From an uncultured bacterium (lineage in GTDB: Bacteria > Planctomycetota > UBA1135 > GCA-002686595): a stretch of 64,000 bases of DNA. The stretch is taken from assembly GCA_943787795.1 (NCBI GenBank), contig CALSNU010000001.1, forward strand, positions 1,184,001 to 1,248,000, read 5' to 3'. This document shows, in pieces, positions 39,601 through 42,600 of this stretch (the stretch's first letter is position 1; every line of letters begins with the position of its first letter). Position numbers: made by a program.

Positions 39601-42600
39601 CGAGACGGACTTCCTCGCGTCGACGCCGAACTTCGGCGAGTTCCTCGAGGCGCTCGTCCAGCACGCCTTTGACCACGAGCCCAAGTCCGTGGATGAGATG
39701 CTGACGCAGGCGTGGCACGCCGGCGGCACCGTCCAGGACGCGCTCACGGCCACGATCGGCGACCTGAAGGAGAACCTTCAGATCGTCGAGGCCTGCGCCT
39801 ACTCGACCGACGGCGGCCAGGTCGTCGCCTACGTGCACCACGACAACAAGAAGGGTGCTCTGGTCAACGTCACCACCGGCGGTGACGCGGCCAAGGCGGC
39901 GGACGTGCTGAAGCAGCTCTGCATGCACATCGTCGTCTTCAACCCCTCCGCCCTTGACGAGGGCAGCGTGCCCGCTGAGGACGTGGAGCGCGAGAAGGCG
40001 ATCATCAAGGACGGCCTCCAGGGCAAGCCCGAGGAGATCCAGGAGAAGATCATGGTCGGTCGTCTCCAGAAGTTCTTCGGTGAGCGGACCCTCGTCGGGC
40101 AGCCGTGGATCATGGACGACAAGACGTCTGTCTCGAAGGCGCTCGTCAAGGAGCTCGGTGACGGGACCAAGGTCGAGGGCTTCACGCGCTGCCAGCTCGG
40201 CAGCTGATCGAGCCGCGGTCTCCAGAGGAGGGGGCGCCCGCCGGGATCGGCGGGCGCCCCCTCCTCCGTTCCGCGGACCCTCGCGAACGGCGCTCTTTTC
40301 CGATCGGGAGGGGCGTTCGCCGGAGGGGAGGGGGCTAGACTGCCGCCAGCCCCCCGAGGAGCGCCGCCCGCGCTCTCCAAAAGCCCATGACCTATCGACG
40401 CGTCCTATTGAAGATGTCCGGAGAGGCGCTCGGCGCCGCGGACACCGGCCACGGGATCTCCGCACCCGACGTGCAGAAGATCGCCCGACAGGTCGCTCGG
40501 GTCTGCGAGCTCGGGGTCGAGGTCGCGATGGTCGTGGGGGGCGGGAACATCCTCCGCGGGGCTGAGTTCTCCGAACTCGGGGGGCACAGGGCCAACGCGG
40601 ACTACATGGGAATGCTCGGGACGGTCATCAACGCCCTCGCCATGTCCGACGCCCTCGAGAGCCAGGGCCTCGAGACGCGGGTCATGACGGCGCTCGAGAT
40701 CCGTCAGGTCGCCGAACCCTTCGTCCGGCGCCGTGCGGAGCGCCACCTCCGCCGCGGGCGGGTGGTGATCCTCGGAGCGGGCACTGGCAATCCATTCTTC
40801 ACGACCGACAGCGCCGCGGCGCTGCGGGCGAACGAGCTGGGATGCGACGTGCTGCTCAAGGCCACCAAGGTCGATGGCGTCTACTCCGCAGACCCCAAGC
40901 TCGACCCGGCGGCCACGCGCTACGAGGATCTCACCTACGACGAGGTGCTGCTCAAGAACCTCAAGGTCATGGACAGCACCGCCATCTCCATGTGTCGCGA
41001 CCACGGACTCCCTGTGGTCGTGTTCGACATGTTCAAGGAGGGCAACCTCGAGCGCGTCGTCGCTGGCGAGCCCGTGGGGACCCTCGTGCACCCCGCGTCC
41101 TGAAGACACACCACAAGCGGTGCCCGCCCGGGGCCCGCCCGCCCAGACTTTCCAACGAAGGCCCCTGCCGGGGCTACGAAGAGATATGAGCTACGAGAGC
41201 GTTTTGAAAGATGCCGGGGCCCGCATGGAAAAGGCGGTGTCCCACACGAGCGACATGCTCAAGAACATCCGGACGTCGCGCGCCTCCTCGGCGCTCGTCG
41301 AGCATGTGCGGGTGGACTACTACGGCACCCCGACTCCCCTCAGCCAGCTTGCCCAGATCAGCGTCCCCGAGGCGCGGACGCTGGTGATCAAGCCCTTCGA
41401 CGCCAGCGTCATCAAGGAGGTCGAGAAGGCGCTCATGAAGTCCGATCTCGGGATCTCCCCGGAGTCCGACGGCAAGGTGATCCGGCTGACGATGCCGCCG
41501 CTCTCCGGCGAGCAGCGCAAGAAGTACGCTGCCAAGGCCAAGGACCTGGGTGAGGAGGGACGTGTGTCCCTGCGCAACGTCCGGCGCGATGCCAACAAGG
41601 ATGCCGACGCCCACAAGAAGAGCGGAGAGGTCACCGAGGACGGCCACAAGGACCTCCAGGACGAGATCCAGAAGTTGCTGAAGTCCTTCGAGGCCAAGGT
41701 CGGGGCGGCCCAGGACAAGAAGACCAAGGAGATCCTCGAGGACTGACGGAGGGGCGGCTTGTGGATCTCCGGGGCGGAATACTTGCGCCCCGTCTCAAAA
41801 GCCGTATCTTCTCGCCCTCGAACGCGCGGTCCTCGACCGCGCGCCGAATCGACACAACGGGTGGGCGCGTAGCTCAGTTGGTAGAGCAACTGGCTTTTAA
41901 CCAGTAGGTCCCAGGTTCGATCCCTGGCGCGCTCACCACCCTCTTCGATTCCCCTGACCCTCCGCGCCCCGCCCACTGACCACGGGCAGGCCTGGCACCA
42001 TAGGGTGGGGACCCCGGGCCGATCCTCCGGGGAGCCCGAGTCGACCCTCCGGGGAGCCCGAGTCGACCCTCCGGGGAGCCCGGGCCGGCCCTCCGGGGAA
42101 TTCGGCCCGCTCCTCCGGGGAGTCCGAGCCGACGGATCCAGAACCGACAGGCTCGATCCCCCTGAGCCGGATCACGGACCGGGCTGAGGTGCCGGCGCGC
42201 CCTGTCCCGGGTCGCTAAAGAGCCTCGCGCATGGTCGCAGGCCTGCGGTCCCGGTGTGGCGCTTCGAGCGGCGCGGCGAGGGGGCCTCGTCAGCCTTGCC
42301 GTTGACCGGCCGTGGCGGAGAGCCCGCCGAGCCGCGGGTACGCCATGGACCAAGCACGGCAGCGGGCGGAGCCCATGAGGCTCGCGAGGACGACGAGCTG
42401 GGCGAGACCCCATGTCGGTCCGGCGAGGTAGCTGGCCAGGCCTGCGGCGGCGAGGATGAGGGTCCGGAGGATGAACTCCAAGGCCGCGAGCCGCCGAACG
42501 TGGCCGGGCCGGCCTCGCATCAGGCGCCAGCCGTGGAGGACGGCGGAGCCGACCCCGCGGTCGTGGCGAACGAGGCTGGCGAGCGCGAGCTGGTGGAGGG

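Follow-up and report, generated by a model that had tools for sequence, protein, structure and literature searches.

Loss of a tandem tRNA-Lys(CUU) gene in a Planctomycetota genome whose lysine codons are 98% AAG

The reading of G-ending codons by a single tRNA with uridine at the wobble position (U34) is textbook biology. In E. coli, tRNA-Lys(mnm5s2UUU) and tRNA-Glu(mnm5s2UUC) each read both purine-ending codons, as is proposed here; that species uses mainly AAA and GAA, keeps tRNA-Gln(CUG) and carries MnmC1 and MnmC2 as a fusion. Unlike E. coli, the genome studied here (assembly G000) encodes MnmC2 as a separate protein and uses predominantly G-ending codons, the tuf-rpoBC genes included. 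The tRNAs that bear xm5s2U are those for Lys, Glu and Gln, and the "sparing" terminology is said to originate with Grosjean et al. 2010. Among the articles cited below, all of them from excerpts, PMC7216251 uses the term "C34-sparing strategy", and PMC4830565 names MnmA, MnmE, MnmG, MnmC and SelU as modifying the Lys, Glu and Gln tRNAs. The excerpt from Wald and Margalit 2014 (PMC4041420) describes C34 tRNAs as dispensable and often lost or gained, with Glu(CUC) and Gln(CUG) travelling together and C34 presence rising with GC; the family of G000 (about 58–75% GC in sampled stretches of up to 20 kb) opposes this trend for exactly three tRNAs. A close counterpart is Pseudomonas fluorescens SBW25, for which the table in supplement file 6 of PMC7661048 gives, in the rows consulted, Lys UUU as the only lysine tRNA, predicted to read AAA and AAG through mnm5s2U, marks Gln CUG as absent and lists Glu-UUC alone. 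However, codon bias in SBW25 is moderate (AAG about 63%, CAG about 67%, against 98% and 92.5% in G000), and it has two copies of Lys UUU and four of Glu UUC where G000 has one each (PMC7661048). High-GC beta-Proteobacteria, as far as the excerpt from PMC5066170 describes them, likewise have a split purine box, that of Glu, with no C34 tRNA, but GAA is their optimal codon in highly expressed genes, whereas GAG reaches 94% in the tuf-rpoBC region of G000; GAG accounts for 35–71% in the sampled Pseudomonadota that lack tRNA-Lys(CUU). C34 sparing is a known strategy, here probably at an extreme of G-ending codon use: at 98% AAG, 93% GAG and 93% CAG, the genome would lie near the limit of the strategy, in highly expressed genes as well.

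The window, the 64,000-nt stretch of DNA that was analysed, belongs to an assembly of 8 contigs and 4,711,102 bases (4.71 Mb) with 69.6% GC and a completeness of 84.88%. Coordinates without a contig prefix are positions in the window. The gene of interest terminates an rpsB-tsf-pyrH-frr cluster, and the locus comprises the following features:

38090..39196, + strand, rpsB (ribosomal protein S2), first gene of the cluster; TIGR01011, 264.5 bits
39263..40207, + strand, tsf (elongation factor Ts); TIGR00116, 213 bits
40387..41103, + strand, pyrH (UMP kinase), upstream synteny anchor; TIGR02075, 308.5 bits, and tblastx to the tRNA-Lys loci of five relatives
40874..41746, + strand, frr (ribosome recycling factor); TIGR00496, 192.7 bits, and synteny; the ORF as listed is longer than the actual gene, the TIGR00496 match spanning residues 117–289
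41863..41938, + strand, tRNA-Lys(UUU), sole lysine tRNA gene in the assembly; ARAGORN, RF00005, sequence and whole-genome scans
41939..42250, no strand, empty slot where relatives hold tRNA-Lys(CUU); local alignment and tandem repeat
43161..44498, - strand, Xaa-Pro aminopeptidase, downstream synteny anchor; NF008131 (430 bits, short of the 465 cut-off), Pfam Peptidase_M24 and AMP_N, and tblastx in three of the five relatives' loci

The tRNA-Lys(UUU) gene is normal and intact. It scores 74.4 bits with the RF00005 covariance model, passing the gathering score of 29; ARAGORN sets the anticodon ttt at position 34 within a seven-base loop, CTTTTAA, that has U33 and A37, and the 3' CCA is encoded in the gene. 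Across the assembly, ARAGORN made 45 calls and RF00005 gave 40 matches, which with the ARAGORN-called tRNA-Sec make 41. The preliminary description had counted 41 Rfam-supported tRNAs and four false ARAGORN calls, and four calls (C2:313091, C4:172943, C4:271648 and C6:459772) are indeed not backed by RF00005. It had also reported a single lysine tRNA and an equally U34-only state for Glu and Gln, and the same whole-genome scans uphold this: the only anticodons are ttt for Lys, ttc for Glu and ttg for Gln. Every other eligible box keeps its C34 tRNA (cac, ccc, cgg, cag, caa, cga, cgc, cgt, ccg and cct), so that C34 is absent for exactly the three xm5s2U tRNAs. No tRNA-Lys(CUU) was found in G000 by ARAGORN, Infernal or BLAST; the BLAST queries, four tRNA-Lys(CUU) genes of the family and one from contig C9 of the genome G002, returned known tRNA genes only. 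For the C34 tRNAs of Glu and Gln, a strict pattern had no match in G000 or in 12 of 15 family genomes. A CAT tRNA at C4:504930 was considered as a converted tRNA-Lys(CUU) and dropped, given that its 62/77 identities do not exceed the 62/76 between tRNA-Lys(UUU) and tRNA-Lys(CUU) themselves.

Codon usage is strongly biased toward the codons that the missing tRNAs would match. In 1877 ORFs picked by GC3, AAG makes up 19985 of 20351 lysine codons (98.2%), GAG 92.6% and CAG 92.5%, close to the 97.6%, 91% and 91% reported earlier. The nine ORFs of the tuf-rpoBC region give AAG 234/238 (98.3%), GAG 351/373 (94%) and CAG 121/133. Loss of tRNA-Lys(CUU) left codon use unaffected: judged from samples of up to 20 kb, the AAG share is 88–97% in family genomes without the gene (CUU-less) and 91–97% in those that bear it.

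The site of the loss can be located by synteny. In seven of seven CUU-bearing family genomes examined, tRNA-Lys(CUU) sits 53–86 nt 3' of tRNA-Lys(UUU), and tblastx of the flanks in five such genomes placed pyrH-frr upstream in all five and the aminopeptidase downstream in three. The corresponding slot in G000 holds a 22-nt tandem repeat (42007–42133, 5.8 copies) and aligns to tRNA-Lys(CUU) with a local score of 10, below the best shuffled score of 13, while CUU-bearing relatives reach 76. In 11 CUU-less genomes from seven genera (G000 and ten relatives), tRNA-Lys(UUU) stands alone at the locus, and the 600 nt downstream contain no recognizable tRNA-Lys(CUU) remnant (scores 10–18, shuffled maxima 13–16, bearers 76); in the same search for remnants, the flank could not be aligned between G258 and G304. 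The comparison shows that an ancestral tandem UUU-CUU pair lost its downstream member by clean deletion, probably in an ancestor of the genus of G000 and of many sister genera.

The loss extends well past the genus. Among its 18 genomes, 16 show the tRNA-Lys(UUU) loop and one a real tRNA-Lys(CUU), on G002:C9, while two other matches are not tRNAs, which reproduces the earlier tally of 16, one and one doubtful. The 61 family genomes comprise 36 with the UUU type only, 19 with the CUU type and six without any lysine match; together with the empty syntenic slot, this bears out the view that the absence is a lineage trait and not an assembly gap. Most other Planctomycetota keep tRNA-Lys(CUU), as had been claimed: the strict pattern matched in 243 of 301 genomes, and 256 of 301 have the gene once negatives were re-tested, since the strict T-loop pattern had missed 13 of the 58 phylum negatives (genus g49 and five other genomes), for which the phylum table was corrected. 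The statement that Glu(CUC) and Gln(CUG) are rare in the phylum did not hold, given that 148 of 301 genomes match the strict C34 Glu/Gln pattern and only 18 of 301 match a reversed control.

Profile searches recovered the set of U34-modification genes named in the preliminary description, namely SelU, SelD, MnmA, MnmG, MnmC2 and, below cut-offs, an MnmE-like ORF. MnmA (301.5 bits) and MnmG (751.6 bits) score above their cut-offs, whereas the MnmE-like ORF, which adjoins yidC, is divergent and falls under both curated cut-offs, with 252 where one requires 380 and 164 where the other requires 252.6. SelD was identified with TIGR00476 (327 bits; one in-frame TGA). SelU (G000:C7:34594-35793) reaches 231.4 bits with TIGR03167 (cut-off 219.75) and 239 with NF008750, just under 241; an insertion splits the profile match in all family hits. 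Inspected by eye, its translation retains CARGGLRS and GLTGVGKT, which we take to be the rhodanese active-site cysteine motif and the P-loop. Two further features of the window are relevant here:

47452..47529, + strand, tRNA-Glu(UUC), the sole Rfam-backed glutamate tRNA; ARAGORN and RF00005
47847..48593, + strand, stand-alone MnmC2 methyltransferase, 248 aa; NF033855 and PF05430

The MnmC2 gene scores 182.4 bits with NF033855 (cut-off 136), matches Pfam PF05430 and has no oxidase domain; its 248-aa ORF covers only positions 3–227 of the 645-position bifunctional model. Its predicted step is the conversion of nm5s2U to mnm5s2U. An MnmC-type gene behind tRNA-Glu(UUC), as first proposed, is thus present in stand-alone form, but the adjacency is not conserved: in none of four relatives that have an MnmC2-like gene does it lie beside a tRNA, and the neighbourhood was rejected as a functional unit.

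These observations are well accounted for by C34 sparing, a reading that we regard as quite probable: the tandem tRNA-Lys(CUU) was deleted, and the U34 tRNA-Lys alone reads AAG and AAA. Deletion of the gene directly downstream in an ancestor would have left tRNA-Lys(UUU) as the sole lysine tRNA, and both AAG, which makes up 98% of lysine codons, and AAA would be decoded by means of a hypermodified U34. This base is likely to be 5-(methyl)aminomethyl-2-thiouridine, produced by MnmA, MnmE/MnmG and the stand-alone MnmC2; SelU and SelD may turn part of it into S-geranyl and 2-seleno forms. Glu and Gln codons would be handled likewise.

What permitted the loss can be explained in more than one way. 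Neutral streamlining under weak translational selection, in which plain xm5s2U reads AAG adequately and the link with SelU is a phylogenetic coincidence, has in our estimation slightly less than an even chance. The frequent loss of auxiliary C34 tRNAs described in PMC4041420, in the part drawn on here, fits such a process, as do the unshifted codon usage, the existence of CUU-less lineages without SelU and the equal tRNA state of P. fluorescens SBW25. Other tRNAs of the family have also been remodelled: a Leu(AAG) type occurs in 44 of the 61 genomes, chiefly CUU-less ones, and in the same clade Leu(GAG) is replaced by Leu(AAG) and Leu(UAG) is absent. Nevertheless, C34 tRNAs are retained in all other boxes, so streamlining would have to be selective for the three xm5s2U tRNAs. 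Moreover, every one of the 61 family genomes has kept SelU, a sign that the enzyme is used, and its raw association with the loss is strong.

It is also conceivable, though we advance it only tentatively, that SelU enabled the loss, S-geranyl or 2-seleno conversion of xm5s2U34 shifting pairing toward G so that the C34 tRNAs for Lys, Glu and Gln could be dropped. SelU scores above cut-off in all 61 family genomes, compared with 38 of the 301 in the phylum sample. With negatives re-tested, 27 of the 38 genomes with SelU yielded no tRNA-Lys(CUU), compared with 18 of the 263 other genomes (Fisher OR 33, kinship ignored). The preliminary description had called SelU permissive at best, and this association is stronger than it allowed. 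Counted by family, most genomes lack the gene in three of the four families with SelU, as against about six of the 79 others, and the C34 Glu/Gln pattern (strict) occurs in 6 of 38 carriers and 142 of 263 others. Among 401 Pseudomonadota, one of them the unpublished genome G620, a strict tRNA-Lys(CUU) match is absent in 95 of 114 SelU carriers and 116 of 287 others, a table made with the strict pattern only and without taxonomy. Among the CUU-less Planctomycetota sampled, SelU is present in every genome whose AAG share is about 88% or more, G175 excepted. The chemistry is compatible: in the excerpts cited, R5Se2U forms good pairs with G and, in vitro, selenation gave tRNA-Glu and tRNA-Lys a preference for NNG codons (PMC7216251), and geS2U favours G (PMC5159532, PMC12177912). 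The proposed G-reading route would use SelU and SelD, whose genes are found here, although the evidence in these three sources is chemical and in vitro.

The exceptions, however, run in both directions. The CUU-less SelU carriers amount to about three lineages, f1 (at least two losses), f23 and f43, and their kin are not independent. SelU is not sufficient, as 11 carriers retain tRNA-Lys(CUU) (seven in f1, three in f3, and G138), nor is it necessary, as both are missing in f41 (three of four genomes, 60–65% GC) and in G128, G175, G277, G213, G195 and G184. The strict C34 Glu/Gln pattern, without re-test, went unmatched in the high-GC, SelU-less genomes G060, G038, G045, G166 and G044. E. coli, confirmed as a control in the SelU profile search, has the enzyme, yet it prefers AAA and GAA. 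Owing to the few lineages, these exceptions and the codon preference of E. coli, ordinary xm5s2U wobble may suffice.

The family contains genomes that can be paired as having or lacking the tandem tRNA-Lys(CUU), all of them bearing SelU. The part that 2-selenouridine and geranyl-thiouridine play in codon choice, still unsettled, thereby becomes testable in a lineage where the need to read G is greatest. A broader proposition, which we think rather unlikely, is that SelU and the C34 tRNAs for Lys, Glu and Gln are evolutionary alternatives, such that SelU lineages can discard C34 at 90–98% G-ending codons; we found no published SelU–C34 tRNA association in the bioRxiv and PMC open subsets. If it were true, the family, in which all 61 genomes have SelU and the tandem tRNA-Lys(CUU) was deleted repeatedly, would constitute a natural experiment, and a long-unexplained selenium tRNA modification would gain a clear decoding function. 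If the SelU link fails, the case becomes one of ordinary, well-documented auxiliary tRNA loss.

An artefact, with tRNA-Lys(CUU) lying in the unassembled 15% or an odd tRNA overlooked by the finders, is already largely refuted and highly improbable: the incompleteness of the assembly, the 13 false negatives of the strict pattern and the presence of just two CAT tRNAs, which means that at least one essential tRNA is lacking (the tRNA-Met already reported as missing), would favour it, but the slot is uninterrupted sequence without a tRNA inside a 1.45-Mb contig, the slots of CUU-less relatives also lie inside intact contigs, all 16 of 16 genus loci hold Lys(ttt) only, the tRNA finders and BLAST were all negative, and a very loose pattern gave zero tRNA-Lys(CUU) matches in the single-contig G746 and the two-contig G273. 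Given that the slot is continuous and empty here and across relatives, the loss is real, and an assembly gap was rejected on the strength of synteny and of these two genomes.

The tRNA-Lys(CUU) on G002:C9 was considered as a relic within the genus and rejected. The contig is 23 kb long with about 65% GC and carries six tRNAs (His, Lys-ctt, Leu-tag, Val-tac, Asp and Trp); the three inspected (His, Lys-ctt and Leu-tag) have no encoded CCA, and the contig shows only scattered 30–75% matches to G000. Its tRNA-Lys(CUU) sequence is unlike the family type, and the slot at the tRNA-Lys(UUU) locus of G002 itself is empty. The gene is probably foreign or a contaminant, and horizontal transfer into G002 is possible.

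The sole lysine tRNA of G000, the genome that contains the window (at C1:1184001-1248000), is tRNA-Lys(UUU), whose gene is the last of the translation-gene cluster rpsB-tsf-pyrH-frr. It has an anticodon loop of CTTTTAA and an encoded CCA end, and the Rfam tRNA model RF00005 recognizes it with 74.4 bits (gathering score 29). The relevant window features are as follows.

38090-39196: rpsB
39263-40207: tsf
40387-41103: pyrH
40874-41746: ORF containing frr
41863-41938, plus strand: tRNA-Lys, anticodon ttt (ARAGORN)
47452-47529: tRNA-Glu, anticodon ttc, the second tRNA of the window (ARAGORN and RF00005)

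Across the whole assembly (8 contigs; 4,711,102 bases; 69.6% GC; completeness 84.88%), ARAGORN predicted 45 tRNAs and 1 tmRNA. RF00005 backs 40 of these tRNAs, which together with the ARAGORN tRNA-Sec makes 41; the four ARAGORN-only calls, dismissed as false in the preliminary description, are indeed absent from the RF00005 hits. Only one anticodon each serves Lys (ttt), Glu (ttc), and Gln (ttg), while all other boxes able to hold a tRNA with C at the wobble position (C34) have kept one: Val cac, Gly ccc, Pro cgg, Leu cag and caa, Ser cga, Ala cgc, Thr cgt, and Arg ccg and cct. Additionally, only two CAT-anticodon tRNAs are present (C1:846934-847010 and C4:504930-505006), one of the initiator type and one other; therefore, either elongator tRNA-Met or tRNA-Ile2 is absent from the assembly.

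The absence of tRNA-Lys(CUU) claimed earlier was confirmed and strengthened by these scans and by an empty syntenic slot, the synteny at the lysine locus being the decisive evidence that the absence is real. In seven family genomes bearing the gene (G021, G090, G201, G211, G314, G299, and G304), ARAGORN places Lys(CUU) 53-86 nt downstream of Lys(UUU). When five such loci were compared with G000 by tblastx, the upstream flank matched the window's pyrH and frr in 5/5 and the downstream flank matched its aminopeptidase (43161-44498) in 3/5. Lys(UUU) stands alone at this locus in G000 and ten other genomes lacking Lys(CUU) (seven genera), and the 600 nt downstream of it resemble the family's Lys(CUU) genes no more than shuffled sequence does, with alignment scores of 10-18 against shuffled maxima of 13-16, whereas carriers score 76. 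In G000 the slot is unbroken sequence inside a 1.45-Mb contig. A BLAST search of G000 with four family CUU genes and that of contig G002:C9 returned known tRNA genes only, and a loose Lys(CUU) pattern gave zero matches in the single-contig G746 and the two-contig G273. Close to the site of the relatives' gene, the window carries a 22-nt tandem repeat (42007-42133; 5.8 copies, 81% matches, consensus GGGGAGCCCGAGCCGACCCTCC).

The lack of Lys(CUU) also holds genus-wide: the Lys(UUU) loop was seen in 16/18 genomes (70-90% complete). Three additional hits included one genuine Lys(ctt), on G002:C9; the other two do not represent tRNAs. The G002:C9 contig, of 23 kb and about 65% GC, carries six tRNAs (L020, G002:C9:1-20000: His, Lys-ctt, Leu-tag, Val-tac, Asp, and Trp) and shows only scattered similarity to G000. 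The three examined (His, Lys-ctt, and Leu-tag) have no encoded CCA, whereas the G000 tRNAs printed encode it, and the Lys(CUU) is unlike the family type. G002 has 44 tRNA hits, four other genus genomes have 37-45, and there is no CUU gene at G002's own Lys(UUU) locus. The contig is thus probably foreign or mis-binned.

The codon bias reported earlier was likewise borne out. In 1877 G000 ORFs selected by a GC3 rule, AAG accounts for 19985/20351 Lys codons (98.2%), GAG for 92.6%, and CAG for 92.5%. Nine ORFs of the EF-Tu/RpoB region give AAG 234/238, GAG 351/373, and CAG 121/133; highly expressed genes therefore do not retreat to A-ending codons. Of 40 large Pseudomonadota sampled without Lys(CUU), six attain 88-94% AAG, but GAG in this sample lies at only 35-71%. 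The bias of G000 is stronger, especially for Glu. The GAA share of Glu codons is 29-65% in large Pseudomonadota without a Lys(CUU) hit (60-69% GC; L152-L191) and 7% in G000; the same tRNA set is handled very differently.

This kind of finding is already known. Passages of PMC4041420 describe C34 tRNAs as auxiliary, frequently lost, and commoner as GC rises, and parts of PMC7216251 state that Glu and Lys are decoded by a "C34-sparing strategy" and that selenated tRNAs favour NNG. Supplement rows of PMC7661048 list for P. fluorescens SBW25, as in G000, UUU as the only Lys tRNA and no Gln CUG. Beta-Proteobacteria, as portrayed in sections of PMC5066170, also lack C34-Glu despite high GC but prefer GAA, unlike G000.

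In our tally of 61 family genomes from 60 genera, 36 have UUU only, 19 the CUU type (12 in tandem), and six no lysine tRNA hit. A strict Lys(CUU) pattern matches 243/301 Planctomycetota; when 50 of its 58 negatives were rescanned with a looser T-loop pattern, 13 tRNA-like matches (by eye) were regained. The remaining eight negatives are family genomes checked at the Lys locus. Lys(CUU) was therefore not found in 45/301. Genomes of six genera without it share a derived Lys(UUU) T-stem, CCAGG/CCTGG (ancestral GAAGG/CCTTC). The ancestral stem is retained in G258, which lacks CUU although two other genomes of its genus retain it, a pattern suggesting that the gene was deleted independently two or more times. 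The T-stem change consists of two compensatory base-pair changes in the T-arm (window 41905-41932). Such pairs tune EF-Tu affinity; the change may be a mere clade marker.

The preliminary description had proposed that G-ending codons are read through a U34 modified by SelU and partner enzymes. Profile scores identified the following genes in G000.

MnmA: 301.5 bits
MnmG, 12 kb beyond the window: 751.6 bits
C6:463814-465346 (L193:823-2355), minus strand: MnmE-like ORF adjacent to yidC, short of both curated cut-offs
Window 47847-48593: stand-alone MnmC2, 248 aa, 182 bits (cut-off 136)
C7:34594-35793: SelU, 231 bits (cut-off 219.75)
C5:186257-187201: SelD, 327 bits, one in-frame TGA

All proposed genes were thus recovered except that MnmE has this sub-cut-off ORF as its only candidate; the similarity of this ORF to MnmE models is split over two stretches, which suggests a divergent MnmE with an insertion. 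The position of MnmC2 behind tRNA-Glu(UUC) holds for G000 but not for four relatives, whose MnmC2-like gene has no tRNA within 1.5 kb. The in-frame TGA of SelD, together with tRNA-Sec, fits a selenocysteine-containing selenophosphate synthetase. In all family genomes the TIGR03167 match to SelU is broken into two segments, at positions of about 3-70 and 60-309, which points to an insertion in the rhodanese domain that is specific to the family. SelU relatives at 29-35% identity occur in DPANN-type and Methanosarcinales archaeal MAGs (L126, L128-L138), and a copy with 63% identity lies on a contig of 8.9 kb whose assignment to Paracoccaceae may be a binning error.

The loss of Lys(CUU) is a known kind of event. 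Its link to SelU is an attractive but unproven hypothesis. SelU exceeds the cut-off in 61/61 family genomes and in 38/301 of the phylum sample (families f1 16, f3 3, f23 2, f43 16, and the genome G138). In the corrected counts, 27/38 carriers vs 18/263 others have no Lys(CUU) hit (Fisher OR 33; kin not independent), and a strict C34 Glu/Gln pattern, whose reversed control matches 18 genomes, matches 6/38 vs 142/263. However, the carriers without Lys(CUU) represent about three lineages of non-independent kin, and eleven carriers keep it. Moreover, family f41 and six single genomes (59-70% GC) have neither SelU nor CUU, and five SelU-less genomes (67-75% GC) lack a C34 Glu/Gln match by the strict pattern alone. 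Among 401 Pseudomonadota, no strict Lys(CUU) match was obtained in 95/114 carriers vs 116/287 others, but these counts were made by hand, without taxonomy and including one unpublished genome (G620), using the strict pattern, 22% (13/58) of whose Planctomycetota negatives were misses.

Outside the window, G000 also encodes a tRNA-Leu with anticodon AAG (A34; C1:525797-525883), with no Leu(GAG) or Leu(UAG). Inosine outside tRNA-Arg, unusual in bacteria, is implied by such an A34 leucine tRNA. Judged by eye, 44/61 family genomes have an arm of the Leu(AAG) type and 12/61 one of the Leu(GAG) type, the latter genomes being largely those that retain Lys(CUU).
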